DNA of 14,216 nucleotides from a virus (IMGVR_UViG_2563366885_000002), one strand, 5' to 3'; positions 1-14,216 are shown, counted from the first letter of the stretch. Numbers and translations: made by a program. The notes: a model not told the origin generated them from the sequence alone.

Positions 1-1061
1 AGACGGTGCGATGCTACCTGTTGCTCATTACTGTAGATCCGTAGTTCATCATCCAGCGAGATCCGTATTGATACCGGCTGGCCACACAGGCTTTCCGGTA
101 CGCTGTAACGGTTCCCGCCAACCTCGATATAGCTATCCCAGGAGACATGACGGATATCGAAATAGCTGGTATCGAAGTCCGTACCCGGCAGCGGATGCAG
201 ATGCTCCTGTTCCTGCGTGAAGCGCTGTTCCGGTGTCTGCCTGAACTGGCGAAGTTCTCGCCTGTCAGCAACGTCAGCCATCCACTGCTCCAGTAGCTGG
301 TTAACATGGGCGAAGCTGTCGAACCGGCGGTACCGGATGAAGAAGTTTTCCTTGAGGTATTTCACCATCCGTTCAACCTTACCTTTGGTTCTGGCCCTTC
401 GTGGACGGCAGGCCCGTGGCAGGAAGCCATAGTGATCGGCCAGCAGCAGGAACCCGGAGTTGAACACCACCTTCCCGTTGTTATTTTTCAGCACTGCGGC
501 TTTCTGGTTATCGACCAGCACGGTTTTCACGCTACCGCCGAAGTAGCGAAAGGCGCGGACCAGTGACTCATAGGTATGTTCAGCATCCTGCTTTGGTGCC
601 GCGAAGACATGGAAGCGACGTGAGAACCCCAGCGTATTAACCGCGAAGTTAACCCTGCATCGTTGCCCGGCAACCTCAGCCTCAACTTCTCCCCAGTCAT
701 GCTGTAGCTGGTAACCGGGCTGAGTTTCGAAGCGAACCGTTTTCTTCGATGGCCGCATCTTACGTTTGGGCTGGATGTAGTAGCGCAACATGGAACGGCC
801 ACCGGTATAACCCATCGCTTTGATTTCCGCCAGGATGACCTCGCCGTTCCAGACGTTCTCAGCCAGACGCATATCTATATAGTCCATGAACGGCTTGAGT
901 TTGGCCATTTTGTGGCGTGTTTTTCTGGCCGGAGGTTCCGGGTATTTCAGGTACCGTCTGACGGTCCGCTCAGAGCAACCAACCTGAGTGGCAATATCAA
1001 CAATATACGCACCTTGCTGGCGCATTTGCTTTATCATGTAAAAATCCTCTCTGCTCAGCAT
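1..1061 (-). CDS. istA: IS21-family transposase IstA, N-terminal 353 codons; the C-terminus lies beyond the window start.
   Basis: Reverse-strand translation from ATG 1061-1059 (alternative ATG 1037-1035) reads MLSREDFYMIKQMRQQGAYIVDIATQVGCSERTVRRYLKYPEPPARKTRHK..., an HTH-like N-terminus. DDE-type catalytic residues sit in the contexts QLQHDWGE, VLVDNQK and RTKGKVER. The frame stays open to position 1, which is why it is absent from the ORF track (no stop in window). Recognised from memory as IS21/IS100-like IstA. Confidence 0.85.
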   Translation of the reverse strand, partial: MLSREDFYMIKQMRQQGAYIVDIATQVGCSERTVRRYLKYPEPPARKTRHKMAKLKPFMDYIDMRLAENVWNGEVILAEIKAMGYTGGRSMLRYYIQPKRKMRPSKKTVRFETQPGYQLQHDWGEVEAEVAGQRCRVNFAVNTLGFSRRFHVFAAPKQDAEHTYESLVRAFRYFGGSVKTVLVDNQKAAVLKNNNGKVVFNSGFLLLADHYGFLPRACRPRRARTKGKVERMVKYLKENFFIRYRRFDSFAHVNQLLEQWMADVADRRELRQFRQTPEQRFTQEQEHLHPLPGTDFDTSYFDIRHVSWDSYIEVGGNRYSVPESLCGQPVSIRISLDDELRIYSNEQQVASHR

Positions 1062-1162
1062 GAGTGTTCCCTTTGTGGTGTAGGAACCTTAAGGAAACAA
1101 CATGTTGGGTGGAGCGGACAATCCAAATGGTGAATTACTGTCTTATATCATTGGCGCTGACA
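1..1162 (-). mobile_element. IS21-family insertion sequence, partial: left end plus most of istA; the element continues beyond the window start. Phage-proximal boundary is approximate (about 1150-1165).
   Basis: The minus-strand frame encodes an IstA-type transposase (see CDS). About 100 bp of non-coding sequence separates the istA start (1061) from the first protein-like phage codons, the usual place for an IS21-family terminal repeat. Plus-strand CTGACA at 1157-1162 would give a 5'-TG tip on the element strand. The exact terminus cannot be fixed without a reference IS sequence. Confidence 0.7.
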
Positions 1163-1282
1163 GAAGTACGGGCCAGAGCGCAGCAGGCAGCCAGCAACGC
1201 CGAGAAAATTGCCCGTAAGGGGGGACTGTCAAGCGACGCAGTACAGGCGCTTCGTCGCGAGATTCTGGGGATTGCCACATGA
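1163..1282 (+). pseudogene. 3' remnant of the gene preceding the large terminase (probably the small terminase / DNA-packaging subunit), truncated by the IS insertion.
   Basis: The frame ends at TGA 1280-1282, overlapping the terminase ATG 1279-1281 (ATGA coupling, typical of small/large terminase pairs). Protein-like sequence (...ALTEVRARAQQAASNAEKIARKGGLSSDAVQALRREILGIAT) begins only near 1155-1165; upstream the same frame reads Trp/Cys-rich sequence that looks like IS-end DNA. Gene identity is inferred from position only. Confidence 0.45.
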
Positions 1283-2874
1283 CAAAATCATCCGGAGTGA
1301 TTTTAAACGCCGCTGGCGGTGGCCCCGAAGGGATGAGTCCCATGGACGGGAGGAATAACCTTGCTCCCGTTTTGCCTGATACCTCGGCGCTGGATGCTCC
1401 TCCCGTTCTGTTGCCTTACCAGCAGCGCTGGGTGGCAGACACCTCTCCGCTTAAGGTGATAGAAAAGAGCCGTCGTACCGGTATTACATGGGCTGAGGCA
1501 TCCGATAACGTACTGACCGCCGCCTCTTCTGCGCCAGCAGGCGGGATGAATGTGTATTACATCGCTTATAACCAGGACATGACCGTCGAATACATTCAGG
1601 CGTGTGCGATGTGGGCACGGGCATTCAACTATGCGGCCAGTGAAATTGAAGAAGGATTCTGGGAAGAGGACGACGACGACAAACACATCAGGACTTACAC
1701 CATCAAATTTCCTGACTCCGGCTTTCGTATTGTTGCGCTCTCCAGCCGCCCGTCTAACCTGCGTGGCCGTCAGGGTATTATTGTTATCGACGAAGCGGCG
1801 TTCCATGAGCAACTGGACGAACTGCTGAAAGCGGCGCTGGCGATGCTTATCTGGGGGGGAAAGGTACGCGTTATCTCCACCCATGACGGTGACGACAATC
1901 CGTTCAATACGCTTATCGGGGATATCCGTGCCGGACGTCAGGGAGGCAGCATACATCGCATCACTTTCCGGGAAGCCGTATCTGAGGGGCTGTTCCGGCG
2001 CGTCTGTCTGCGCACCGGGAAGGAATGGTCGGAGGCATCCGAGCAGGCCTGGATGGCATCGGTGTACAAATTCTACGGTGCCGGCGCATCCGAAGAGCTT
2101 GACTGTATTCCGGCCAACGGTGGCGGTGCCTGGCTGTCCCGTGCCCTGATAGAGTCCCGCATGTCCGCTGATACGCCGGTATTGCGTCTGACCTGCAAGG
2201 AAGGTTATGAACTGCTGTCTGATGAGGTTCGCTTCCGCGAGACGCAGGACTGGCTTGATGAGTATCTGAAACCCTTGCTGGAGGCACTCCCCACTGATGC
2301 CCGCTCTTTCCTGGGGCGCGACTTTGGCCGTAGCGGTGATTTGTCGGTGGACTATCCCCTGCTGCAGGAGAAGAACCTGGTACGACGCGTGCCATTCGTA
2401 CTGGAGCTGCGTAACGTGCCGTTCAGACAGCAGGAGCAAATCACCTGGTATCTGATGGATGGCCTGCCCGGTCTGCTGGGTGCAGCGTTTGATGCCCGTG
2501 GTAATGGTGCCTATCTGGCTGAATACGCCATGCAGCGCTACGGCTCCGGCCGGGTTCAGCAGGTGATGCCAACCGAAGGCTGGTACCGGGAGCATATGCC
2601 TCCGGTCAAAGCTGCACTGGAAGACGGTAACCTGGTGGACTTACCAAAGGATGAAGACACACTGGATGACCTGCGGGCCGTTCAGGTGGTGAACGGTGTC
2701 CCCCGCGTACCGGAGCAACGCTCAAAAGCAAAGGCTGACGGTGGTAAACGCCACGGGGATTCAGCCATCGCACTGGCGCTGGCGTATTTCGCCAGCCGTG
2801 AAATTAACAAAGGGCCGGTGAAGGCAAGCTCACGCCGTCGTCGTCAGGCGGCCCGTATGCTGGAGGGATTCTGA
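1279..2874 (+). CDS. Phage terminase large subunit (Mu gp28-type).
   Basis: 531-aa ORF. Deviant Walker A-like motif KSRRTGIT (compare the lambda gpA type) and Walker B-like IIVIDEAAF. Stop TGA 2872-2874 overlaps the next start. Position is at the head of a terminase-portal-F-G series. Confidence 0.88.
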   Translation: MTKSSGVILNAAGGGPEGMSPMDGRNNLAPVLPDTSALDAPPVLLPYQQRWVADTSPLKVIEKSRRTGITWAEASDNVLTAASSAPAGGMNVYYIAYNQDMTVEYIQACAMWARAFNYAASEIEEGFWEEDDDDKHIRTYTIKFPDSGFRIVALSSRPSNLRGRQGIIVIDEAAFHEQLDELLKAALAMLIWGGKVRVISTHDGDDNPFNTLIGDIRAGRQGGSIHRITFREAVSEGLFRRVCLRTGKEWSEASEQAWMASVYKFYGAGASEELDCIPANGGGAWLSRALIESRMSADTPVLRLTCKEGYELLSDEVRFRETQDWLDEYLKPLLEALPTDARSFLGRDFGRSGDLSVDYPLLQEKNLVRRVPFVLELRNVPFRQQEQITWYLMDGLPGLLGAAFDARGNGAYLAEYAMQRYGSGRVQQVMPTEGWYREHMPPVKAALEDGNLVDLPKDEDTLDDLRAVQVVNGVPRVPEQRSKAKADGGKRHGDSAIALALAYFASREINKGPVKASSRRRRQAARMLEGF

Positions 2875-4370
2875 TGGCGAGGGGTATCTGGGTTTCACCC
2901 GATGAATTTGTTGCTTTTTCTGAGCCTCAGAAATCACTGACCGCGCAGATTGCCTCCCGCAGCCGCGCGATCGACTTTTACGGACTGGGCATGTATCTGC
3001 CCAATCCTGATCCCATTCTCAAGGCTCAGGGACGGGATATCCGTATCTACCGCGAACTGCGCACCGACCCGCTGGTTGGGGGCTGTATCCGCAGACGTAA
3101 AGCAGCGCTCAAATCACTGGAGCGTGGACTGGAGCGCGGTCACGCTTCTGCCCGGGTCTTCCGTTTCATCCGCGACATGCTCGACGATCTGGATCTGTCC
3201 CGCATCATCGGTGAGATGAGTGATGCCGTGCTCTACGGGTATCAGCCCTGTGAAATCATGTGGGGCCGTTCGGTCAGGGCGTGGGCAGTGACGGATATTG
3301 TCGGCAAACCGCCTGAGTGGTTTCAGTTTGATACGGACAACTGCCTGCGCTTCCGGGCGCGTGATGCGGGTGTGGAGGGTGAGCTGCTGTCACCGTCAAA
3401 ATTCGTGGTGCCGGCACAGGATGCCTCGTATGACAATCCTTACGGTTTCCCGGACCTGTCCATGTGCTTCTGGCCGGTCGCCTTCAAGAAAGGCGGGATG
3501 AAATTCTGGCTCCGCTTTGCCGAAAAGTTTGGCTCCCCGTGGGTGATCGGTAAGCACCCGAGGGGTGCAAATGATGCAGAGATTGAAAAACTGCTGGACT
3601 CCATGGAGCAGATGGTGGAGGACGCGGTGGCCGCCATCCCCGATGACAGCAGCATCGAACTCAAAGCCGCGGATGGTAAGGCGGACAGCAGCGAGGTATT
3701 CCGCGAGCTGATCACACTGTCACGCAGTGAGATCTCCATTGCATTACTTGGTCAGAATCAGACCACGGAAGCGAACAGTAACAAGGCCTCTGCACAGGCC
3801 GGGCTGGAGGTAACGGCTGATATCCGCGATGCGGATGCGGACATAATTCAGGCAGCAGTGAATCAGGTTATCAGAACGGTGGTCACCCTGAACTTCGGCG
3901 ATGTGCCGTGTCCGGTCTGGGCCATGTGGGAACAGGAGACCATTGATGACACCCGCGCCACCCGCGACGAAAAACTCACCCGGGCGGGTCTGCGTCTGAC
4001 CCCGCAATACTTTAAGCGTGAGTACCAACTGCAGGACGGCGATATTGACGAGACATCACCGTCGGAACGCCAGAATAACATGCTGCCGCTGTCATTTGCC
4101 GAGGCGATTGATGCCGATATTCAGGCTCAGCAGCAGCTTGACGACGCGCTGGACATTCTGATGAACGGAGGTGTGTTAAATGGCACGCTGGAACCCGTCC
4201 TGGCACCTCTGTTTAAGCGGGTCGAAAACGGGGTTAACCCGACTGAGCTGCTGGGCGAACTGGCGGAGCTCTACCCTCAGATGAACACGGACGATCTGCA
4301 GGAACGGCTGGCCCGTATTCTCTTTGTGGCAAATATCTGGGGACGTCTGCATGAGCGTGACAACGGCTGA
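2874..4370 (+). CDS. Phage portal protein (Mu gp29-type, DUF935-like).
   Basis: 498-aa ORF directly coupled to the terminase (TGATG overlap at 2872-2876). Size and position between the large terminase and the F-like gene match the Mu-type head module. Family assignment is from memory and synteny, not a search. Confidence 0.8.
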   Translation: MARGIWVSPDEFVAFSEPQKSLTAQIASRSRAIDFYGLGMYLPNPDPILKAQGRDIRIYRELRTDPLVGGCIRRRKAALKSLERGLERGHASARVFRFIRDMLDDLDLSRIIGEMSDAVLYGYQPCEIMWGRSVRAWAVTDIVGKPPEWFQFDTDNCLRFRARDAGVEGELLSPSKFVVPAQDASYDNPYGFPDLSMCFWPVAFKKGGMKFWLRFAEKFGSPWVIGKHPRGANDAEIEKLLDSMEQMVEDAVAAIPDDSSIELKAADGKADSSEVFRELITLSRSEISIALLGQNQTTEANSNKASAQAGLEVTADIRDADADIIQAAVNQVIRTVVTLNFGDVPCPVWAMWEQETIDDTRATRDEKLTRAGLRLTPQYFKREYQLQDGDIDETSPSERQNNMLPLSFAEAIDADIQAQQQLDDALDILMNGGVLNGTLEPVLAPLFKRVENGVNPTELLGELAELYPQMNTDDLQERLARILFVANIWGRLHERDNG

Positions 4371-5172
4371 ACTGGCGTACTGCATGACGCTTCCCCCGAA
4401 GCGGGCAGTCAGTTACCTGAAGTCCAAAGGGTATCAGATTACCTGGGACTGGGAAGAAATGTGGCAGGAGGCCCATGCCCGCGCCTTTACCGTTGCTAAA
4501 GTGACCCGCCTGGATATCCTGGAAGATATTCGCGGGGCACTGCAGCAGGCTGTCGATGAAGGAAAAACCGATCGCTGGTTCCGGCAGGAGCTGGAGCCGG
4601 TGCTGAAGCGTAAGGGATGGTGGGGACCACGTGACACGACTGACCCGGTAACGGGTAAGCCGGTCACCATTCAGCAGGGCAGTCCGTGGCGGCTCGATAC
4701 CATCTTTCGCACCAATATGTCCGTACTCTACAGCGCCGGTCGTTGGGCGGAACAGATGGAAAACGTCGACGACAGGCCGTACTGGATGTATACCGGCATC
4801 AACGACAGCCATACCCGCAGGAGCCATCTGGCGCTGCATGGTCTGGTGCTGCGCTGGGATGACCCGTTCTGGCAGGCATTTTACCCGCCGAACGGCTGGC
4901 GCTGCCGCTGTAGTGTGATTGCCCTGAGTGCGGCGGATGTACGTGCCCGTGGCCTGAAGGTTATCAGCTCCGGCTCTGCCATGGGCCAGGAACTGAAACT
5001 GGTCTCAGAGAAAACCGGCGAAATGCGGAACGTGGCCACCTTTAATACCGGCACCACGAAGGTGACCACCGACGTCGGCTGGTCTTATGCACCGGGGGCA
5101 GCATACCGTCCCGACCTGGCCCGCTATCAGGGTACGCTTCAGCCACTGGCACAACAGGAACTGAGAGGATAA
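4351..5172 (+). CDS. Head morphogenesis / minor head protein (phage Mu F-like, gp30-type).
   Basis: About 273 aa from ATG 4351; the ORF track starts at TTG 4324 and another in-frame ATG is at 4384. It overlaps the portal 3' end by 20 nt. Conserved-looking block ...YWMYTGINDSHTRRSHLALHGLVLRWDDPFWQAFYPPNGWRCRC... resembles the Mu F / SPP1 gp7 family. It follows the portal as in Mu. Confidence 0.75.
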   Translation: MSVTTAELAYCMTLPPKRAVSYLKSKGYQITWDWEEMWQEAHARAFTVAKVTRLDILEDIRGALQQAVDEGKTDRWFRQELEPVLKRKGWWGPRDTTDPVTGKPVTIQQGSPWRLDTIFRTNMSVLYSAGRWAEQMENVDDRPYWMYTGINDSHTRRSHLALHGLVLRWDDPFWQAFYPPNGWRCRCSVIALSAADVRARGLKVISSGSAMGQELKLVSEKTGEMRNVATFNTGTTKVTTDVGWSYAPGAAYRPDLARYQGTLQPLAQQELRG

Positions 5173-5174
5173 CA

Positions 5175-5633
5175 ATGGCTTCCGATAACCTGGTCAGTAT
5201 CACCATTAACGATAAATCCCTGCGCCGGAGCCTCCGTGCGCTGGATCTTGCTGCCACAGACCTGGAGCCCGCGATGCGCAAAATCGCCGGAACCCTGCTG
5301 GCGGAAACACAGTTTAACTTTCTTGATGAGGGGCGTCCGGGGTGGATCCCCTCGCTGGCAGCGGAAGAACGTGACGGGCAGACACTGCAGGATACCGGGC
5401 GTCTGATGGGGTCAGTATCAACCGACCATGACGACCGGCAGGCTGTTGTGGGGACCAACGTTGTTTACGGTGCCATTCACCAGTTCGGGGGTAAAACGGG
5501 GCGTAATGAGTCTGTTGAACTTCCGGCCCGCCCGTTCCTGCCGGTGACGGGGGATGGAGAACTACAGCCTGAAGTGGTAATCCCCATCCTCGATACCATT
5601 GTCCGCCATCTTGAATCAGCGGCCCGTCGCTGA
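5175..5633 (+). CDS. Virion morphogenesis protein (phage Mu G-like, gp31-type).
   Basis: 152-aa ORF with a good Shine-Dalgarno (AGAGGA, 5163-5168) ahead of ATG 5175. Motif VVGTNVVYGAIHQFGG is typical of Mu G-like proteins. It follows the F-like gene as in Mu. Confidence 0.72.
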   Translation: MASDNLVSITINDKSLRRSLRALDLAATDLEPAMRKIAGTLLAETQFNFLDEGRPGWIPSLAAEERDGQTLQDTGRLMGSVSTDHDDRQAVVGTNVVYGAIHQFGGKTGRNESVELPARPFLPVTGDGELQPEVVIPILDTIVRHLESAARR

Positions 5634-5679
5634 GTTTTCTCTCTTCAGGCGGGTGATTTATCATTGCCAGCGAATGAGG

Positions 5680-5720
5680 GGCTGTATTACCTTTATAAAG
5701 GCTTTACAGCCTCTGTTTTA
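5680..5720 (+). terminator. Candidate hairpin / intrinsic terminator after the G-like gene.
   Basis: Extended imperfect palindrome GGCTGTA-ttac-CCTTTATAAAGG-ctt-TACAGCC (5680-5711), with a perfect 12-bp internal palindrome, followed by the T-rich stretch tctgtttta. It could alternatively be a protein-binding site. Confidence 0.35.
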
Positions 5721-5759
5721 TAACCGCCTCCGGTTCACCGCATTGCTTTCCCTGTCCTT

Positions 5760-5800
5760 CTCCCCTGATGTTTTCTAAAGCAGATTAAAATCGCCGGGCC
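5760..5800 (+). promoter_or_regulatory. Candidate activator-dependent late promoter upstream of the protease/scaffold gene (position equivalent to Mu P_I).
   Basis: TAAAAT at 5786-5791 is a good -10. The best -35 candidate is poor (cTGAtg around 5765-5770), as expected for a promoter that needs a C-type activator. It lies about 55 bp upstream of ATG 5848 in a 214-bp non-coding gap. Confidence 0.3.
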
Positions 5801-5847
5801 TGCATTTCTCACAAACTGTCTCCGACAACATAACGCGGGACAGCAAA

Positions 5848-6963
5848 ATGTCAGCCATTCACATTTTTAAAGCCGGTACTCATACCGATATGCACGGCAA
5901 AAAACTGCCGTTCACGCCAGACGATCTTGCCGCCTGCGTGAAAGCCTATGACCCGTCCGTCCATGAAGCACCACTCGTGATTGGTCATCCCAGAACGGAA
6001 GACCCGGCGTGGGGCTGGGTGAAAGCCCTGTCGCTCAGCGGCGTCGATCTGATGGCAGAGCCTGCCCAGCTGGACCCGCAGTTTGCTGAGATGGTCACCG
6101 ACGGACGATTCAAAAAAGTGTCCGCCTCTTTCTACCTCCCGGATTCACCGTCCAATCCGAAGCCCGGCGTGCTCTACCTTCGCCATGTGGGCTTTCTCGG
6201 GGCACAGCCACCTTCCGTCAAGGGGCTGAAACAGGTGTCCTTCAGTGAGCAGGAAGAAGGTGTGGTGGAGTTCGCCGACTGGCAGGCCATCACGAATGCC
6301 TCCCTGTGGGGAAAGCTGCGCGATTTTCTGATCGCCCGCTTCAGTCTGGACGAGGCAGAAAAAGTCCTGCCGGAATGGCAGCTCAACAGTCTGCGCGAAG
6401 AGGCGTACCGCGACACACTGTCGCAGGATGCAGCAGGTGCACAATTCAGTGAGACAGGCCCGGGGCCGTCTTCCGCAAGTAACGAGGAATCATCGATGAC
6501 AAAAGAAGAGATTGAAGCCCTTCAGGAGGAGAACCGCCGCCTGAAGCAGCAGGCTGCTGATCGCGATGCGCGTGATGCACAGGTCAGACAGGAGCAACTG
6601 CATAAGGACAATGTGGCCTTTGCAGAAAAACTGGTCGCAGAGGGCCGTCTGGCTCCCCGCGCCTCCTCCGTGGTGGTTGCCCTGCTGGATGCCGTCGCCG
6701 GTGGCGACAAGCCGGTGGAGTTTGCTGAGGGGGAAAGCCGCACACCGCTGGCCACCGCCTTTCGTTCATTGCTCTCCGACGGGGAGCCGGTGATGAATTT
6801 CGCCGAACAGGCCACAAAAGAGCGTGTCGGCGACACGGTGAAGGTGGATGTGGCAGAGTTTGCGGAAGCCGATCCTGAGCGTCTGGCCCTGCATCAGAAA
6901 GCAGTGGCCCTGTCCAAAAAAGAAGGCATCAGCTATGAGGCTGCTGTCGCACGCTGCCTGTAA
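5848..6963 (+). CDS. Prohead protease / scaffold protein (phage Mu I-like, gp32-type).
   Basis: 371-aa ORF, first gene after the intergenic gap and directly upstream of the major head gene. The C-terminal third is Glu/Ala/Arg-rich and helical-looking (EEIEALQEENRRLKQQAADRDARDAQVRQEQL...), consistent with a scaffold domain. Confidence 0.75.
   Translation: MSAIHIFKAGTHTDMHGKKLPFTPDDLAACVKAYDPSVHEAPLVIGHPRTEDPAWGWVKALSLSGVDLMAEPAQLDPQFAEMVTDGRFKKVSASFYLPDSPSNPKPGVLYLRHVGFLGAQPPSVKGLKQVSFSEQEEGVVEFADWQAITNASLWGKLRDFLIARFSLDEAEKVLPEWQLNSLREEAYRDTLSQDAAGAQFSETGPGPSSASNEESSMTKEEIEALQEENRRLKQQAADRDARDAQVRQEQLHKDNVAFAEKLVAEGRLAPRASSVVVALLDAVAGGDKPVEFAEGESRTPLATAFRSLLSDGEPVMNFAEQATKERVGDTVKVDVAEFAEADPERLALHQKAVALSKKEGISYEAAVARCL
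6496..6963 (+). CDS. Nested in-frame scaffold protein (Mu Z-like), an internal initiation product of the protease/scaffold gene.
   Basis: ATG 6496-6498 is in frame with 5848 and preceded by GAGGAA (6484-6489). The product would be MTKEEIEALQEENRRLKQQ... (155 aa), the coiled-coil-like C-terminal part. This mirrors the Mu I/Z arrangement recalled from the literature. Confidence 0.5.
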   Translation: MTKEEIEALQEENRRLKQQAADRDARDAQVRQEQLHKDNVAFAEKLVAEGRLAPRASSVVVALLDAVAGGDKPVEFAEGESRTPLATAFRSLLSDGEPVMNFAEQATKERVGDTVKVDVAEFAEADPERLALHQKAVALSKKEGISYEAAVARCL

Positions 6964-6977
6964 TTTAAGGAGAGAGC

Positions 6978-7931
6978 ATGTCTGATTACTTAAAAGGTAA
7001 ACGTGTCGTTGATCCGGTACTGACCAGTATCGCCCGTGGCTATAAAAATGCCGCATTCATCGGCGAACGTATTTTCCCCGTCGTGCTGACGGACAAGGAA
7101 GGCGTGCGTGTACCGACCTTCGGGAAAACCGCCTTTGTGGAATATGACACCGAGCGTGCCGTCGGGGCGGACAGCAATGTTCTGGTCCGTGAAAAAACAG
7201 GCACGCTGGACCTGGTGCTGGGTGAACACGATCTGGCTGCGCCGGTGGACTATCGCGAGCAGGCGGAGTCCATGTTTAACGAAGAGAGCAAGGCCATCCG
7301 TCGCGCCACGAATGGCGTGAACCTGCGCCGTGAACTTATCGCTGCCCGTCTGGCTCAGGATGAAAAGGTCTACCGTACCGGGCACGTCAAAAAACTGACA
7401 GCCAGTGATCGCTGGGCCGGTGGTAAGGGGGACCCCATCGGGGTGATTGAAGCCGGTATGGAAGCGGTCCGTACGGCCACGGGGCTGCGTCCTAACCTGA
7501 TGACCATGGGGGCCGGCGTGATGGCGCTGCTGAAGTTCCACCTGGCGATTCAGGCCGCCATCGGAGCCAACGAACGCAAGCGCATCACCACAGAAATCCT
7601 GCAGGACCTCTTTCAGATCGAAGAGATCGTCATCGGTGCCCCGGTCTCCCTGCCGTCCATGAAAGCGGCAATGGATAAGAACAGCGTGCCGGCGGATATC
7701 TGGGGAGACAATCTGATGCTGCACTATGTCGGCAAACCGCAGCCGGGGGCGGACAGCGCGGACGAGAACGAGCCGTCCTTCGGCTACACCCTGCGTCGTA
7801 AGGGGATGCCTGTTGCCGACAAATACGACGGAGCCGGTGGCAAGGTGAAGTACTGCCGTTATACCGATATCTACAAAGTCGCCGTGGTTGGTGGCGATGC
7901 CGGGTATCTCATTACCGGTATCAGTAAATAA
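6978..7931 (+). CDS. Major head (capsid) protein (phage Mu T-like, gp34-type).
   Basis: 317-aa ORF with a strong Shine-Dalgarno (AAGGAGA, 6967-6973). It sits immediately after the protease/scaffold gene; size and position fit a Mu-type major head subunit. Confidence 0.8.
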   Translation: MSDYLKGKRVVDPVLTSIARGYKNAAFIGERIFPVVLTDKEGVRVPTFGKTAFVEYDTERAVGADSNVLVREKTGTLDLVLGEHDLAAPVDYREQAESMFNEESKAIRRATNGVNLRRELIAARLAQDEKVYRTGHVKKLTASDRWAGGKGDPIGVIEAGMEAVRTATGLRPNLMTMGAGVMALLKFHLAIQAAIGANERKRITTEILQDLFQIEEIVIGAPVSLPSMKAAMDKNSVPADIWGDNLMLHYVGKPQPGADSADENEPSFGYTLRRKGMPVADKYDGAGGKVKYCRYTDIYKVAVVGGDAGYLITGISK

Positions 7932-7940
7932 GGAGGCGTT

Positions 7941-8279
7941 ATGGGAACCACTCAGCAGGTCATTCTGATCACAACCGTAACGGCAGGGGCAGCACTGGCA
8001 CAGCAGCGTTTTGTCGGGGCAGATAATACCCCCTGTAAAGCCGGTGCCGCAGCGCTCGGGGTTGCCGAAGTGGATGCTGTTACCGGCGACAGCACGCCGG
8101 TGAGCGTTCTGGGCATTATTGCTGTCGAGGCCGGGGCCGCTGTCAGCCGTGGTGTGGCTGTTCAGTCAGATGCTCAGGCCAGAGCCGTGCCGCAGTCCGG
8201 CGACGGTAAATCCTGTGGTATTGCACTTGATGAAGCCGGGGGTGAAGGCGACGTCATTCGTATCCTGCGCGGGGTGTGA
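7941..8279 (+). CDS. Small Ala/Gly/Val-rich head-associated protein (Mu gp35 position; possibly DUF2190-like).
   Basis: 112-aa ORF with a strong Shine-Dalgarno (AAGGAGG, 7930-7936) nine bases after the major head stop. Function is unknown; assignment is by position and composition only. Confidence 0.6.
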   Translation: MGTTQQVILITTVTAGAALAQQRFVGADNTPCKAGAAALGVAEVDAVTGDSTPVSVLGIIAVEAGAAVSRGVAVQSDAQARAVPQSGDGKSCGIALDEAGGEGDVIRILRGV

Positions 8280-8280
8280 C

Positions 8281-8727
8281 ATGTACTGCACCCTGGAGGA
8301 TTTGCTTGCGCAGGTGCCGGAGCGGACGCTTATCGAGCTCACCAGTGAAGAGATGGACTTCGACTCGCCTGCAACAGTGAATACCCGTGTGGTGGACAGC
8401 TGTATCCGCTATGCCGACGAGCTGATTGATGCCCATCTGCGCGGACGCTATATCCTGCCACTGGCAGAGATACCGACTGTTCTGCGGGACATTGCCATCA
8501 CGCTGGTCCGTTACCGGCTCTACGCCCGCCGCCCGGAAGGTGACCTCCCGGATACGGTAAAGGATGACCACAAAGAAGCGCTGCGGCAACTCAGGGAGTT
8601 ACGTGATAACAGGCTCACGCTGGGGCTGCCGTCCACTCAGAAAGATGTGCCTGAGCCTGGCGAGTTTCGTGTACGCAGTCGCCCGGCCACTTTCGGCGGT
8701 CGTGACGGTTTACTGGAGAAATACTGA
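8281..8727 (+). CDS. Head completion / head-tail joining protein (Mu gp36-like, DUF1320-type).
   Basis: 148 aa from ATG 8281, one base after the upstream TGA (8277-8279). The ORF-track start at 8119 would overlap the preceding gene by 160 nt and is not favoured. Call is by synteny and size. Confidence 0.65.
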   Translation: MYCTLEDLLAQVPERTLIELTSEEMDFDSPATVNTRVVDSCIRYADELIDAHLRGRYILPLAEIPTVLRDIAITLVRYRLYARRPEGDLPDTVKDDHKEALRQLRELRDNRLTLGLPSTQKDVPEPGEFRVRSRPATFGGRDGLLEKY

Positions 8728-9191
8728 TGAACGTTCTGCCCGTCCTTGATGCGGTACTGGCCCGGTTACGCGAGAAGCTGCCGCAACTGCAGGTGGAGTA
8801 CTTCCCGGAGAAACCGGCTGAATATCGCCTGAACCATCCGGTTGGCGCGTTGCTGTTGAGCTATGCCGGTTCGCGCTTTGACAGGCCGGATGATACCGGT
8901 GCGGTGATCCAGTCTCAGACTATCCAGCTCTGCGTCACGGTGGTCTTCCGCCAGCTCAACGGTAAAAAAGGGGCGATTAATGTCCTGGATGCTGTCCGCC
9001 GCATTCTCGGTGGCCACACCCCGCCCGGCTGCCGCCGCCGTATCTGGCTGACCCGCGAGGTGTTTATCGGTGAAGTCAGGGGGCTGTGGCAGTACGCCCT
9101 CGACTTCGCGACTGAAAGCGTCTTTATCGAAGACAGCGATTTACCGTCCGGCCCGCTGTTAACCGAAGTGAACTATGAGGAAAGCGAGTGA
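8727..9191 (+). CDS. Mu gp37-like protein (DUF1834-type), head-tail region.
   Basis: 154-aa ORF coupled to the upstream gene by a TGATG overlap (8725-8729). Call is by synteny. Confidence 0.65.
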   Translation: MNVLPVLDAVLARLREKLPQLQVEYFPEKPAEYRLNHPVGALLLSYAGSRFDRPDDTGAVIQSQTIQLCVTVVFRQLNGKKGAINVLDAVRRILGGHTPPGCRRRIWLTREVFIGEVRGLWQYALDFATESVFIEDSDLPSGPLLTEVNYEESE

Positions 9192-9442
9192 TGAAAGAAT
9201 ACCGCTATTCCGGCCCGGCCAGCGGCGTCACGCTGTCGGACGGAACCGAAATCCTGCTCTGGCCGGGGAAGACGGTTTCCCTGCCGGAGGAGCATGACTA
9301 CGTGAAGGTACTGGTGGCGCTGAAACATCTGACGCCGGTACCTGAAGAGACTAAACCCGCCGGCACACCGGCTGTGCAGTCACCAAAGCGCAGAAGCAGC
9401 AGTGACAGCGAAGTGAAAACGGAGGACACCCATGGCAGCTAA
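9191..9442 (+). CDS. Small hypothetical protein (Mu gp38 position).
   Basis: About 83 aa from ATG 9191 (TGATG overlap with the upstream stop), preceded by GAGGAAAG. Pro/Ser-rich C-terminus. It overlaps the sheath start by 11 nt. Confidence 0.55.
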   Translation: MKEYRYSGPASGVTLSDGTEILLWPGKTVSLPEEHDYVKVLVALKHLTPVPEETKPAGTPAVQSPKRRSSSDSEVKTEDTHGS

Positions 9443-10859
9443 CTATCTGCATGGTCCCGAAACCATTGAGGTGGAAAACGGTGCCCGCCCGGTTAAAACG
9501 GTGAAATCTGCCGTTATTGGCCTGATTGGTACCGCCCCGATGGGGGATGTCAATACGCTGGTACAGTGCCTGTCTGAGAAAGACGCAGCGGCATTTGGCA
9601 GCCAGTTCACCGGCTTTACCATTCCGCAGGCGCTGGATGCGATTTATGACCATGGTGCAGGTACCGTTCTGGTCATTAACGTCCTCGACCCGGCGAAACA
9701 TAAAACGGCGATCGAGGATGAGGTGGTTACCTTTGACAAATCGACAGGGCAGGCCAGACTGGCGCATCCGGTTGTCGCTAATGTGGTGGTGAAAAACAGT
9801 GAAGGCAGCACCTCCCACACGGCGAACACGGACTACCGTGTTGATGCGCAGGCGGGTGTGCTCACGAACCTGGGCAAGGCTATTGAGGCCGGTGGCAGCG
9901 TGAAGGTGAGCTATGAGTACGCGGACCCGTCGAAGGTGACTGCGGCGGACATCATCGGCGGGGTGAACAGCGCCGGAAACCGAACCGGCATGAAGCTGCT
10001 TAACGACAGCTTCAACCTGTACGGCTATTTCGCCAAAATTCTGATTGCGCCGGTGTTCTGCACCCAGAAGAGTGTCGCAGTTGAGCTTATCGCCATGGCA
10101 GAGAAGCTGGGCGCGGTAACCTACATTGATGCGCCTGTCGGTACCACCTTTGCACAGGCTCTGGCAGGTCGTGGCCCGGAAGGCACCATCAACTTCAATA
10201 CCAGCTCCGACCGCGTCCGTCTGTGCTATCCGCATGTGAAGGTATATGACCCGGTGACAAACACAGAGCGTCTGGAGCCGCTCAGCCAGCGTGCAGCAGG
10301 TCTGCGTGCCAGAGTCGATCTGGACAAGGGCTACTGGTGGTCATCCTCCAATCAGGAGATTCTGGGGATCACCGGCGTGGAGCGCCAGCTGTCCGCGATG
10401 ATTGATGACCCGCAGAGTGAGGTGAACCTGCTTAACGAACAGGGGATCACCACGGTATTCAGCAGTTACGGCAGCGGCCTTCGTCTGTGGGGTAACCGGA
10501 CGGCAGCATGGCCAACGGTCACCCATATGCGTAACTTTGAGAACGTTCGCCGCACCGGTGATGTGATCAACGAGTCCATTCGTTATTTCAGCCAGCAGTA
10601 CATCGACATGCCGATTACTCAGGCGCTGATTGATGCACTGACGGAGTCGGTCAACGCCTACGGTCGCAAAATGACTGGTGATGGTGCGGTACTGGGCTTC
10701 CGTTGCTGGTTTGATCCGGCCCGCAATCCGGAGACGGAGCTGGCCGCCGGGCACCTGTTGCTGAGCTACAAATATACGCCACCACCGCCGCTGGAGCGAC
10801 TGACGTTTGAGACTGAGATCACCTCGGAATACCTGTTAACCCTGAAAGGGGGCAACTGA
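9432..10859 (+). CDS. Contractile tail sheath protein (Mu L-like, gp39-type).
   Basis: 475-aa ORF with a strong Shine-Dalgarno (GGAGGA, 9421-9426). It lies directly upstream of the tube gene; size is typical of sheath proteins. Confidence 0.82.
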   Translation: MAANYLHGPETIEVENGARPVKTVKSAVIGLIGTAPMGDVNTLVQCLSEKDAAAFGSQFTGFTIPQALDAIYDHGAGTVLVINVLDPAKHKTAIEDEVVTFDKSTGQARLAHPVVANVVVKNSEGSTSHTANTDYRVDAQAGVLTNLGKAIEAGGSVKVSYEYADPSKVTAADIIGGVNSAGNRTGMKLLNDSFNLYGYFAKILIAPVFCTQKSVAVELIAMAEKLGAVTYIDAPVGTTFAQALAGRGPEGTINFNTSSDRVRLCYPHVKVYDPVTNTERLEPLSQRAAGLRARVDLDKGYWWSSSNQEILGITGVERQLSAMIDDPQSEVNLLNEQGITTVFSSYGSGLRLWGNRTAAWPTVTHMRNFENVRRTGDVINESIRYFSQQYIDMPITQALIDALTESVNAYGRKMTGDGAVLGFRCWFDPARNPETELAAGHLLLSYKYTPPPPLERLTFETEITSEYLLTLKGGN

Positions 10860-11380
10860 TGTCAAAGATTGAGATAAACCGCATCACGAATGCCAACATC
10901 TATCTGGATGGTACTAACCTGCTGGGACGGGCTGAGGAAGTTAAACTCCCCGATGTCTCCATGATTATGCAGGAACACAAGGCGCTGGGGATGGTGGGTA
11001 AGGTGGAACTCCCGGCTGGTTTTGACAAACTGGAAGGCGAAATCAAATGGAACAGCTTTTACCGCGATGCGATGCTGTCTGCCGCGAACCCGTACAGGTC
11101 GCTGGCACTGCAGTGTCGTTCCAGCGTCCAGCGCTACAGCTCGCAGGGGCTGATTGACGAAATCCCGCTGGTCACCTTCCTGACGATTATGTTCAAGAAG
11201 AACCCGCTGGGGACGTTCAAACAGCACGAGAACGCCGAGTTCTCCAGTAGCTTCACCTGCACGTATATCAGACAGGTACTGGATGGTGAAGAGCTGCTGC
11301 AACTGGACTATCTGGCCAACATCTTCCGGGTCGGCGGTGTTGATCAACTGACTGACTACCGTATCAATATCGGGGGCTGA
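10859..11380 (+). CDS. Tail tube protein (Mu M-like / P2 FII-like).
   Basis: 173-aa ORF coupled to the sheath gene by a TGATG overlap (10857-10861). Size and position between the sheath and the chaperone/tape-measure genes fit a tube protein. Confidence 0.72.
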   Translation: MSKIEINRITNANIYLDGTNLLGRAEEVKLPDVSMIMQEHKALGMVGKVELPAGFDKLEGEIKWNSFYRDAMLSAANPYRSLALQCRSSVQRYSSQGLIDEIPLVTFLTIMFKKNPLGTFKQHENAEFSSSFTCTYIRQVLDGEELLQLDYLANIFRVGGVDQLTDYRINIGG

Positions 11381-11382
11381 CG

Positions 11383-11664
11383 GTGAGTGTTGAACTGACG
11401 GATAAAGGAGGACGATGTGCGGCACTGGGCATGTCAAATGGTACGTGGTTTACCCTCCTTGATATTCCGGGGGTGGAAACCCTTTTTAATACCCGTAAAA
11501 CCAATGACCCGATTGACTGCACACGTTCAAAGGCCCGCAAACTGGCGGATTTGATTGAAGCATGGGAGCCTCCCGACCACTGGTTCTCCGGCATCGGCAA
11601 ATCTGAGGGAAAGACGCTTCTCATCGCTTTCCTGCGTAACTGCAAGGGGTTTCGCACTTGCTGA
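11383..11664 (+). CDS. Hypothetical small protein between the tail tube and chaperone genes; possible accessory (moron-like) gene.
   Basis: 93 aa from GTG 11383, with GGGGG (11372-11376) as a weak Shine-Dalgarno; an alternative ATG at 11431 gives 77 aa. Protein-like composition with four Cys. It is followed by a clean hairpin terminator. I could not assign a family. Confidence 0.45.
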   Translation: MSVELTDKGGRCAALGMSNGTWFTLLDIPGVETLFNTRKTNDPIDCTRSKARKLADLIEAWEPPDHWFSGIGKSEGKTLLIAFLRNCKGFRTC

Positions 11665-11670
11665 CATCAC

Positions 11671-11700
11671 AGGGGCTCCGGCCCCTTCTTCTTAATCTCC
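11671..11700 (+). terminator. Rho-independent terminator / attenuator.
   Basis: Perfect 6-bp GC-rich stem AGGGGC (11671-11676), loop TCCG, stem GCCCCT (11681-11686), then the T-rich tail tcttcttaatctcc. The reverse complement has no T-tract, so it is oriented for + strand transcripts. Confidence 0.5.
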
Positions 11701-11761
11701 TTTAATATCCGTCACGCGCTTCTCCCGACATACTGCCCTGAACTTACACAGGAGCACAATC

Positions 11762-12097
11762 ATGTCACAGACCCCATCCGATACTTTTAAATTGTCTTAT
11801 CCCTTCACCACTGCTGCAGGCACCAGAATTGAGCTGGTTGAACTGAAACGCCTGACGGTAAAAGACCTGAAGCAGGTGCGCAAAATCAGCAAAAACCCGG
11901 CAGACTGGGACGAACCGCTGATTGCCCGCAGTACTGGTCTTCTCCCGGAAGATCTCGACAATATGGATCTGGCTGATTACCTGCAGTTACAGAAACGATT
12001 TCAGCTCATCACGGGGATGGGTGAGAGCAACCAGGGCGCTGACGCAGGCGCAGGGGCTGCTGGCGAGATGGTTCCGGTTTCAGCCGGGGGAGATTGA
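11762..12097 (+). CDS. Tail assembly chaperone, short form (lambda G / P2 E analogue).
   Basis: 111-aa ORF with AGGAG upstream, immediately ahead of the tape measure gene. The sequence SYPFTTAAGTRIELVELKRLTVKDLKQV...DEPLIARSTGL resembles P2 E-type chaperones. An overlapping out-of-frame extension ORF is present (see next feature). Confidence 0.72.
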   Translation: MSQTPSDTFKLSYPFTTAAGTRIELVELKRLTVKDLKQVRKISKNPADWDEPLIARSTGLLPEDLDNMDLADYLQLQKRFQLITGMGESNQGADAGAGAAGEMVPVSAGGD

Positions 12098-12179
12098 TGC
12101 CCTCGATACTGACGATCTGGAGATGTGGCTGGAGCAGGCTGAAGAGCAAATAAAAAGCGAGTACGGCGACAAATCATAG
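11762..12179 (+). CDS. Tail assembly chaperone, frameshift-extended form (lambda GT / P2 E+E' analogue); needs a +1 (equivalently -2) shift near 12084-12092.
   Basis: The frame of ORF 11922..12179 is +1 relative to 11762..12097. Only its 3' portion past the GGGGG run (12086-12090) reads as protein-like (...QPGEIDALDTDDLEMWLEQAEEQIKSEYGDKS); its 5' portion is Trp/Cys-rich junk. That places the shift two codons before the short-form stop. Exact coordinates of the fused product are not determinable from sequence alone. Confidence 0.5.
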
Positions 12180-12254
12180 TACAGACAGCCGCCAGTAGCG
12201 GCTGTTCTGCGTTATCCCCTCACGTCTTTTCACCTTCCCCGGAGGTTAACCACT

Positions 12255-14216
12255 ATGTCGGGACAGTTTTCAGTCGGCGTTGTTATCGGCGGGATGATTG
12301 GTAGCACATTCCGTTCTGCAATGAGCGGTACCCGCCGTGCGCTTGATTCCCTGAGCGATACCTCACGCCGCCTGCAGGAACGTCAGAACGCTTTAACCCG
12401 TGCAACAGAACGTTATGGTCAACTGGGTTCTTCCCGGATGCAGCATCTCAACAGCGAGCTGCTGCGGGTAAGCCGCACCATGGAGCAAATTGAGCGCCAG
12501 CAGCGCCGTCTGTCAGCGGCATCCGCTACCAGTGATGCGCTGAAAGCTAACCGCATGGCGCTGTATGGTCAGGGGATTGAAGCGTATGGCATGGCACAGA
12601 CTGTTTATCATACGGTTTCCCCTGCCGTTCAGCAGTCCATGTCTTTTCAGGACAAAATGATTGATATGTCGATCACCGCAAAATATGACAATAAAACGCG
12701 GGATGGACTTGCCGGACAGATAAAAGGCTGGGCGCTTAAATACAATCAGTATCAGGATGAGCTGCAGGAGGCGGTGGGTTCACTCATCAGCGACAATATT
12801 GATAATGTGTCAGATATCGGTTTTCTGATGCCGGATATTGCCCGCGCGGCAACGGCAACACGCACGTCTGCTCAGGACTGGGCAAAAGTGGCCGCAGTCT
12901 GGCAAAACTCCCTGAAAGGTGCGGCCAGAGATTTTGGTGCCGTTCAGAATATTATGGCTTATGCCGGTGACCAGGGGTCATTTGAAATCCCGGATCAGGT
13001 CAAGTGGATGCAGTCCCTGGCCCCAATGATGGCGGGTATTGCCAGTGGAAAAGAGGCTGTTGCTGAAATCGGGGCCAGTCTCCAGATAGCAAAAATCGGT
13101 GCAGGTTCCACCGACGAAGCAGCCAATAATTTTAAAAACTTTCTTACCAAAATTTTTGCCCGCGATACTCAGAAACAGTTTGCTGATCTGGGTATTGATT
13201 TGCAGGGATCTATTGCGAGTTATAAAGCTGCGGGGATCTCTCCGATTGAAGGGATGTTGAGTGTTATAGAACGTTACCTCAATGCCAAAAGCCCCGAAGC
13301 GCTGGCCGGCTTCAAATCAGCCATGAAAATAAAGAATGATACGGCAAGAGATGAGGCACTTCAGGCTCTGGCGAAAAACTTTGGTCTGGGTGATATGTTC
13401 GCGGATATGCAGGTCATGGCATTTATCCGCCCGATGCTGGCCAACATGGACAGATATCGAGAGATCCGTGCCGGTGCTCTCAGGGCTGCGGATAACGATT
13501 TGCTTGCCAGTGCTTACGATCAGCGACTGAAATCTCCCCTTGAAGCCACTAAAACACTTATGGTCAGCAGTCGCGATCTGGCAATTACGCTGGGCGATCA
13601 ATTAGCTCCATCTTTTATTTCTTTGACTCAGGAACTGCTTCCACTCATTCAGGGGGCAAAACACTGGGTAGCGACTCACCCGCAATTTGTCAGTGGGGCT
13701 TTTAAGCTCATCAGTGCGCTCCTTGCGATTAAGATAGCGACTGTTGGTCTCAAACTGGGGCTGAATCTCCTTATTTCCCCCTTTGTAAGTGTCTGGAAAA
13801 ATGCTGTTTTACTCCGGACCAACTGGCATCGACTGACTACCGCACTCGGAGAAGGTGGCAAATTACGCTGGCTTGTCACTGGATTCAGCCGACTGACCAG
13901 CGGAGGACTGAAACTCAGCAAAGTTCTGGCGGGCAGCCTCGTTCGCGGTTTTATGAGCGCTGCACGTGCCGTTCTCTGGATTGGGCGAGCGCTGATGATG
14001 AATCCCATCGGTCTCGTTATCACCGCTGTCGCGGCAGCAGCTTACCTTATCTACCGCAACTGGGGGGCTGTCAGTGGTTGGTTTAAACAGCGCTGGGCTG
14101 ACATTCAGGAAGCCTTTAACGGCGGCATTGTGGGAACTGGTAAGTTGCTGATTAACTGGTCGCCGGCAGGCCTGCTCTATAAAGCCTTTGCGGCTGCGCT
14201 GAAATATTTCGGCGTT
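12255..14216 (+). CDS. Tail tape measure protein (Mu Y-like), N-terminal 654 codons; continues beyond the window end.
   Basis: ATG 12255 is preceded by GGAGG (12241-12245). I checked by eye that the frame is open to the last base of the window. Long helical Ala/Leu/Gln-rich sequence, and hydrophobic segments near the end (LISALLAIKIATVGLKLGLNLLISPF, IGLVITAVAAAAYLIY) typical of tape measure proteins. Not in the ORF track because it has no stop in the window. Confidence 0.85.
   Translation, partial: MSGQFSVGVVIGGMIGSTFRSAMSGTRRALDSLSDTSRRLQERQNALTRATERYGQLGSSRMQHLNSELLRVSRTMEQIERQQRRLSAASATSDALKANRMALYGQGIEAYGMAQTVYHTVSPAVQQSMSFQDKMIDMSITAKYDNKTRDGLAGQIKGWALKYNQYQDELQEAVGSLISDNIDNVSDIGFLMPDIARAATATRTSAQDWAKVAAVWQNSLKGAARDFGAVQNIMAYAGDQGSFEIPDQVKWMQSLAPMMAGIASGKEAVAEIGASLQIAKIGAGSTDEAANNFKNFLTKIFARDTQKQFADLGIDLQGSIASYKAAGISPIEGMLSVIERYLNAKSPEALAGFKSAMKIKNDTARDEALQALAKNFGLGDMFADMQVMAFIRPMLANMDRYREIRAGALRAADNDLLASAYDQRLKSPLEATKTLMVSSRDLAITLGDQLAPSFISLTQELLPLIQGAKHWVATHPQFVSGAFKLISALLAIKIATVGLKLGLNLLISPFVSVWKNAVLLRTNWHRLTTALGEGGKLRWLVTGFSRLTSGGLKLSKVLAGSLVRGFMSAARAVLWIGRALMMNPIGLVITAVAAAAYLIYRNWGAVSGWFKQRWADIQEAFNGGIVGTGKLLINWSPAGLLYKAFAAALKYFGV

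Follow-up and report, generated by a model that had tools for sequence, protein, structure and literature searches.

The insertion of an IS into a promoter-proximal gene of an operon has two consequences, as the gene itself is disrupted and transcriptional polarity is imposed upon the genes distal to it. In bacteriophage Mu, a late transcript runs from lys to G. The small terminase of a phage recognizes the pac site and stimulates the large terminase. IS21 itself creates a 4-bp target-site duplication upon insertion. The TIRs of IS21 have been described as having a multi-repeat architecture with internal L1/L2 and R1/R2 repeats, in which the left TIR contains an inward -10 box only and an outward -35 box is located in the right TIR, and the in vitro insertions reported in the same study exhibited a target-site duplication of 5 bp (PMC10122671).

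The current study concerns a stretch of 14,216 nucleotides of viral DNA (IMGVR_UViG_2563366885_000002), referred to here as the window. The host element is a Mu/BcepMu-type transposable prophage in E. coli, and a single copy of ISEc62, an IS21-family element, is inserted in codon 143 of its 181-codon gp27-type gene in an orientation antisense to the phage late genes. That the IS splits this presumptive small-terminase gene is, in our view, virtually certain. For the reading as a whole, i.e. one ISEc62 transposition into the gp27-type gene with duplication of GAAG, together with the loss of function, polarity, and packaging defect that we infer from it, we estimate a probability of roughly 0.83. 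An IS insertion in a prophage gene with the expected polarity is a textbook and quite ordinary event and is nothing new in kind. The IS portion of the window consists of two features:

1..1061, minus strand: istA of ISEc62 (IS21 family), of whose 390 codons the first 353 are present; the ATG start is 1061..1059, and the gene is cut at window position 1
1062..1162, minus strand: left terminal region (L-TIR) of ISEc62, with the terminal repeat TGTCAGCGCCAA, the reverse complement of 1151..1162

The identity of the element is evident from several independent comparisons. The left end of ISEc62, with istA on the minus strand, occupies window 1..1162 and shares 1161 of its 1162 bases with a complete 2125-bp reference copy (locus L004 1538..3662, NZ_CM135148.1, strain 48956), in which istA encodes 390 aa and the overlapping istB encodes 264 aa. 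The sole substitution is at position 134, and the right-end piece of the IS present in the source scaffold is identical to the reference at all 276 of 276 positions. Translation of the minus strand yields a stop-free frame of 353 residues (2..1061) that starts MLSREDFYMIKQMRQQG and exits the window at position 1. Its product scores 283 bits against the NCBIfam model NF033546 “IS21 family transposase” (cutoff 160), and its Pfam domains include rve (52.6 bits) and Mu-transpos_C_2 as well as HTH_23 and HTH_7 at residues 3-39, i.e. a DDE transposase with an N-terminal helix-turn-helix, as expected of an IS21-family IstA. The window istA is 99.9% identical to the annotated ISEc62 istA, and a megablast search of 5426 complete E. 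coli genomes with positions 1..1300 recovered hundreds of chromosomal and plasmid copies matching window ~1..1163 at 99.7-99.9% identity and annotated as “IS21-like element ISEc62 family transposase”. In many unrelated contexts, these matches break off at 1162-1172. The preliminary description of this DNA had recognized a minus-strand IS21-family left end upstream of about 1160 and had predicted that its terminus would fall between 1062 and 1165; both were borne out, with the terminus placed at 1162. Since identities are near 100% for more than 1 kb on either side of it, a chance resemblance can be discounted.

The ends of the element fit the multi-repeat TIR architecture of IS21. The 3' terminal CA of the left end is located at 1161..1162, and the two termini (TGTCAGCGCCAA and TGTCAACGCCAA) agree in 11 of their first 12 bases and exhibit the TG...CA ending of the family. 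Some 28-50 nt in from either terminus lie the arms of a 22-nt internal repeat, of which the right end alone has a third copy. In the L-TIR, this second, internal repeat occupies 1113..1134 and ends in the 9-nt motif TTGTCCGCT, which is present twice in the right end. As a separate matter, the reference ISEc62 copy splits the DUF968 gene of a lambdoid prophage, and another copy (NZ_OY754421.1, ~2204339..2205507) adjoins a gene of the Gam family, suggestive of a prophage of the Mu type. It may be that ISEc62 frequently targets prophages, or just that insertions there are tolerated. A search of the literature on ISEc62 and on Mu gp27 found nothing relevant to function.

The junctions themselves, compared with the uninterrupted site of strain AR_0067 (locus L001), are as follows:

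1162/1163, no strand: right junction, ...TCATTGGCGCTGACA on the IS side followed by GAAGtacgggcc... on the phage side
L002, outside the window, no strand: left junction, ...ccagtctGAAG followed by TGTCAACGCCAAGATT...
L001 (AR_0067), no strand: uninterrupted site, ccagtctGAAGtacgggcc (cagtctGAAGtacggg), with a single GAAG
1163..1166, no strand: target-site duplication GAAG, right-hand copy, from comparison of the junctions with the uninterrupted site
L002 7615..7618, no strand: target-site duplication GAAG, left-hand copy, outside the window

The source scaffold of the window is the 1.23-Mb KE136904.1 of the E. coli assembly GCA_000408125.1, and the portion examined here (locus L002) is identical to the window from its position 8875 on. 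A scaffold gap of 980 N (L002 7895..8874) lies inside the IS, and the window starts with the base that immediately follows it. The gap conceals 687 bp of one ISEc62 copy, and we therefore assume that istA and istB are intact and that the insertion is a single copy. As the stated gap is larger than the 687 bp needed for one ISEc62, either its size is overestimated or more is hidden within it. To the left of the gap, L002 contains in order a 72-codon 3' fragment of istB (the AAA+ helper ATPase, with PF01695), the adjoining right end of the IS, and a 156-codon ORF matching PF11985. Farther upstream, a holin, an SLT transglycosylase, and three small genes follow the gene order of intact prophages, with L002 2460..7618 being collinear with and 99.1% identical to L001. 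Thus, the upstream extension called for in the preliminary description yielded codons 1-142 of the gp27-type gene on KE136904.1, together with part of istB and the opposite end of the IS. The AR_0067 and PhiKM prophages do not share L002 1..2460, which is located upstream of a methylase gene and features a Phage_CI_repr protein and an IclR-type HTH. This immunity/regulatory region is a mosaic replacement of the repressor region in prophages that are otherwise 99% identical.

At window position 1162, the IS ends in ...GGCGCTGACA (last bases GCTGACA) and abuts GAAG, which is found as a 4-bp direct duplication on both flanks of the IS, whereas the uninterrupted site contains only one GAAG. The target-site duplication that the preliminary description had looked for is therefore present, and the reference ISEc62 copy is likewise flanked by a 4-bp duplication, GAAC in its case. 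When the flanks were joined in silico by excision of the IS and one GAAG, the resulting gene was identical to the intact allele at 546 of 546 positions, a hallmark of simple, recent transposition.

The interrupted gene contributes two features to the window:

1163..1282, plus strand: 3' remnant of the Phage_Mu_Gp27 / DUF3486 presumptive small-terminase gene, codons 143-181 plus TGA
1127..1282, plus strand: hybrid ORF of 51 codons, with 12 IS codons (ATG 1127 in the L-TIR) in frame with the gp27 remnant

The intact allele in AR_0067 (546 nt, 181 aa) encodes a “DUF3486 family protein” (WP_000124060.1) upstream of the large terminase, and window 1163..1282 is 100% identical to nucleotides 427-546 of its gene. 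The restored 181-aa protein matches PF11985 “Bacteriophage Mu, Gp27” over the full model (1-173 of 173) at 192.2 bits (cutoff 28) and PHROG 426 “terminase small subunit” at 3.7e-62. The same protein (100% identity) is annotated as “terminase small subunit, Mup27” in Escherichia phage PhiKM, and the protein annotated as the small terminase in BcepMu shares 67% identity with it. Even the 39-codon remnant alone scores 34.6 bits against PF11985 (model 135-173), above the 28-bit gathering cut-off. The designation of this gene as a small terminase is presumptive and is based upon its position, family annotation and homology, and Mu genetics, which we take to support a small-terminase role for the gp27 family. 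Neither a PDB sequence search with the gp27-type protein nor NCBIfam yielded a match of note, as the former gave no meaningful hit and the latter contained no model matching the gp27-type protein or the large terminase. The earlier suspicion that the interrupted gene is the presumptive small terminase agrees with all of these assignments, as does the count of about 40 upstream codons with an ATGA overlap: there are 39 codons and a stop, and the TGA shares ATGA (1279..1282) with the large-terminase ATG at 1279, just as annotated in PhiKM. The gene had also been described as truncated by the IS. It is indeed interrupted at codon 143, but it is split rather than truncated, with codons 1-142 kept on the far side of the element. 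The hybrid ORF was called by the gene caller in the source assembly, yet it is probably meaningless due to its poor Shine-Dalgarno context (GGAG 12 nt upstream).

Downstream of the remnant, the packaging and head genes are arranged as follows:

1279..2874, plus strand: large terminase, 531 aa from ATG 1279, PHROG 2 “terminase large subunit” 5e-39
2874..4370, plus strand: Mu-type portal protein, PF06074 Portal_Mu, 303 bits
4351..5172, plus strand: Mu F-like head morphogenesis protein, PF04233, 91 bits
5175..5633, plus strand: Mu G-like virion morphogenesis protein, PF05069, 81 bits, last gene of the lysis-packaging block

From about 1163 to 14216, the window is 100.0% identical to the prophage copies in FDAARGOS_1258 and M22546, confirming over 13 kb the preliminary view that the downstream structural genes are intact. 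The insertion is recent, since these 13 kb of downstream structural genes are otherwise mutation-free. The presence of a Mu-type head module (Portal_Mu, F, and G-like) places the element among the Mu/BcepMu-type phages. Its earlier assignment to the Mu type was accurate for the portal, F, and G genes, but BcepMu-type is more exact, PhiKM being a Bcepmuvirus. A DDE transposase, a MuB-like ATPase, Gam, and a Mor/C-type late activator are annotated in PhiKM, and L002 ends short of that region. The large-terminase start is ambiguous within 1279..1335, as Prodigal and the PhiKM record place it at ATG 1279 (531 aa) and PGAP at ATG 1333 (513 aa). This gene also appears to be under-annotated in RefSeq, where PGAP names it only “hypothetical protein”, and its Pfam Terminase_6N match of 20.3 bits is sub-threshold (cut-off 22).

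Holin to G span ten genes in intact copies, all of which either overlap or are spaced by no more than 2 nt, and beyond them come a hairpin and a gap of 214 bp. This block would be expected to form a single late transcription unit, in parallel to the lys-to-G late transcript of Mu. The tightly packed unit begins ~2.4 kb farther upstream at the holin gene. For this reason, the proposal that the IS sits at the head of the packaging operon is only partly correct: it is at the head of the packaging part, but in the middle of a lysis-packaging unit that starts at the holin. At the very end of G, a terminator-like hairpin (5616..5633) has a 7 bp stem and a T-rich tail, and a second terminator-like hairpin (5699..5712) is found inside the 214-bp gap before the next head gene (5848). 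By analogy to the lys and I transcripts of Mu, 5616..5847 probably marks the boundary of two late transcription units.

Several features of the remainder of the prophage lie apart from the insertion. A tail-chaperone-like gene (“tail protein E”, 11762..12097) is overlapped by an ORF at 11922..12179 in the +1 (= -2) frame, and the two meet at the run CCGGGGGA (12084..12091). The overlap at 11762..12179 looks like the conserved programmed frameshift of tail-assembly chaperones, though its frame relation is not the usual -1. The tape-measure gene (~12256..14216) extends past the end of the window. Within this span, several copies of the prophage in E. coli are 261 bp longer and align in two pieces, and window 14094..14207 has an additional match at an offset position in PhiKM, whose own tape-measure gene has a sequencing gap. 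These observations suggest that the gene contains a length-variable internal repeat which breaks short-read assemblies. Tandem Repeats Finder detected no array within the window.

Several consequences for packaging can be anticipated from this arrangement. The 5' fragment of the split gene would encode residues 1-142, an E contributed by the duplicated GAAG, and 13 residues of IS origin before a TAA, and its product would be without the conserved C-terminal 39 residues (PF11985 positions 135-173). Because these residues are missing, small-terminase function is probably lost. In addition, late transcripts originating upstream of the holin would have to cross ~2.1 kb of untranslated antisense IS, where Rho-dependent and possibly intrinsic termination should occur, reducing expression of the large terminase, portal, F, and G. 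Untranslated transcript sequence with an excess of C over G favors Rho-dependent termination. The plus strand of the IS part within the window contains no long ORF, and over the first ~900 nt of the IS it has more C than G (GC skew -0.05 to -0.16). In keeping with the known polarity of IS insertions, this one should be polar on terminase, portal, F, and G. A promoter scan returned no sigma-70-like promoter directed out of the IS left end toward the terminase, and the right TIR of the present ISEc62 faces away from the packaging genes. A weak plus-strand promoter-like site (856..883) is found inside the IS and is followed by a weak hairpin (904..916); across the IS and the junction, promoter- and terminator-like sites are no commoner than in shuffled sequence and are accordingly given no weight as evidence for termination. 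Translational coupling into the large terminase at the ATGA would likewise be lost unless the hybrid ORF is translated. The net effect would be a prophage that is still inducible, replicates by transposition, and lyses its host, but packages its DNA poorly or not at all. The preliminary description likewise expected polarity and a packaging-defective or cryptic prophage, a view that we consider reasonable and share. Given the predicted combination of a missing C-terminus, polarity, no outward promoter, and lost coupling, a packaging defect is the most likely phenotype, and we consider it probable.

The distribution of the insertion contrasts with that of its two components. The prophage to which window 1164..3600 is 100% identical is carried by 635 of the 5426 complete E. 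coli genomes (about 12%), and ISEc62 is itself multi-copy in E. coli, with up to 17 places per genome. Among the 547 genomes carrying the gp27-type gene, 532 encode it in one uninterrupted piece, and a partial match among the matches listed comprises only its last 84 nt at 96% identity. Both the prophage and the gp27-type gene occur in up to 3 places per genome, with a median of 1. However, none of the 3230 matching records from the 5426 complete genomes covers at least 80% of the IS/prophage junction query, and an exact-pattern scan for the junction in a contig collection with one genome per species likewise found none. An exact-product look-up placed the 51-aa hybrid ORF on only one contig on record, KE136904.1, and that of its 72-aa GTG-start version gave no match. 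With the junction in no complete E. coli genome and the hybrid ORF in a single contig, the insertion is strain-specific with no sign of spread or recurrence.

When weighing other readings of the locus, those concerning its structure can be judged from the junctions. It is conceivable that two ISEc62 copies bracket additional DNA in the gap as a composite or tandem structure, or that contigs have been mis-joined via this repeated element. The position of the gap in the middle of the IS, the 980 N stated for it as opposed to the 687 bp needed, and the many copies of ISEc62 per genome would all be compatible with such a scenario. However, scaffold gap sizes are estimates, and each contig end has a correct IS terminus, the two being correctly oriented with respect to one another. 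Furthermore, the contigs abut exactly adjacent phage positions with the 4-bp duplication typical of ISEc62, which is not the work of a chance mis-join. We consider this scenario very unlikely, and a composite insertion too would leave the conclusion of a split gene standing. Viewed from the window alone, where only the 3' 39 codons are present and the IS exits at the edge, the element could also have been a deletion or rearrangement boundary in a prophage remnant that no longer has the 5' portion of the gene or the phage genes preceding it. This was rejected, and its probability is negligible: codons 1-142, the lysis cassette, and the upstream genes are all found beyond the IS, collinear with intact prophages, a target duplication is present, and the in silico excision that restores the complete gene rules out such a boundary.

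Of greater concern is the possibility that the insertion is real, but the prophage nevertheless produces particles, whether through supply in trans of an intact gp27 and terminase from a second related prophage, sufficient read-through or IS-internal transcription into the packaging genes, or a C-terminal segment of 39 residues that is either dispensable or supplied by the 51-aa hybrid. Some E. coli genomes do contain 2-3 copies of the prophage or gene, although the median prophage copy number is 1. Moreover, complementation in trans leaves the polarity in cis on terminase, portal, F, and G, even if a second copy could supply these as well. The in-frame hybrid ORF with its IS-derived ATG (1127..1282) might provide the missing segment, but its ribosome-binding context is poor, and the dispensability of that segment is at odds with its conservation at PF11985 positions 135-173 of 173. 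Similarly, the weak plus-strand site at 856..883 could permit low-level downstream expression, but it is at chance level and precedes a hairpin. On balance, continued particle production appears unlikely. More speculative still, the insertion might be a selected “locking” event, with replication and lysis or immunity and the methylase being kept in the absence of spread, or ATG 1127 might restore coupling to a large terminase able to work without a full small subunit. Both are highly improbable. A single, recent ISEc62 transposition resulting in a packaging-defective prophage is the reading we favor.

In practical terms, this insertion explains why a prophage that appears perfect gene by gene may fail to produce particles upon induction. 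Completeness tools that score structural-gene content alone would call the present prophage intact, even though it is probably non-productive. The locus also provides a clean, datable example of the 4-bp ISEc62 target duplication, a small aid to the cataloguing of IS elements. Beyond the annotation of the source strain, it has little significance.

When the locus is compared with described systems, the parallels are close at every level. At the level of the element, the present copy has the same termini, istA-istB layout, and 4-bp target duplication as ISEc62 (the RefSeq/PGAP name), and exhibits no substantive difference from it, its central 687 bp falling in the scaffold gap. Among phages, PhiKM (PQ738613.1, Bcepmuvirus) is 99.4% identical over window 1163..14168 and has the same gene order of small terminase (Mup27), large terminase (Mup28), portal, F, and G, although its record is a partial genome with the sequencing gap in the tape-measure gene. 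In both PhiKM and the Burkholderia phage BcepMu (NC_005882.1), the gp27-type gene is uninterrupted, unlike the gene described here. Mu gp27 (PF11985) shares with it a full-length family match and a location just ahead of the large-terminase gene, with portal, F, and G of the Mu type following downstream. Mu was absent among the tblastn matches listed (40 of 82, E<=1e-3), so this relationship is at the level of the family profile, and the early region is BcepMu-like (divergent) and unlike that of Mu. As for the event itself, the classic polar insertions of IS1 and IS2 in gal and lac and the IS-inactivated cryptic prophages of E. coli likewise involve an antisense IS in a promoter-proximal operon gene. 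In contrast to the former, the element here is of the IS21 family and its polarity is predicted, and in contrast to the latter, the prophage exhibits no other decay, remaining 100.0% identical to intact copies over 13 kb.
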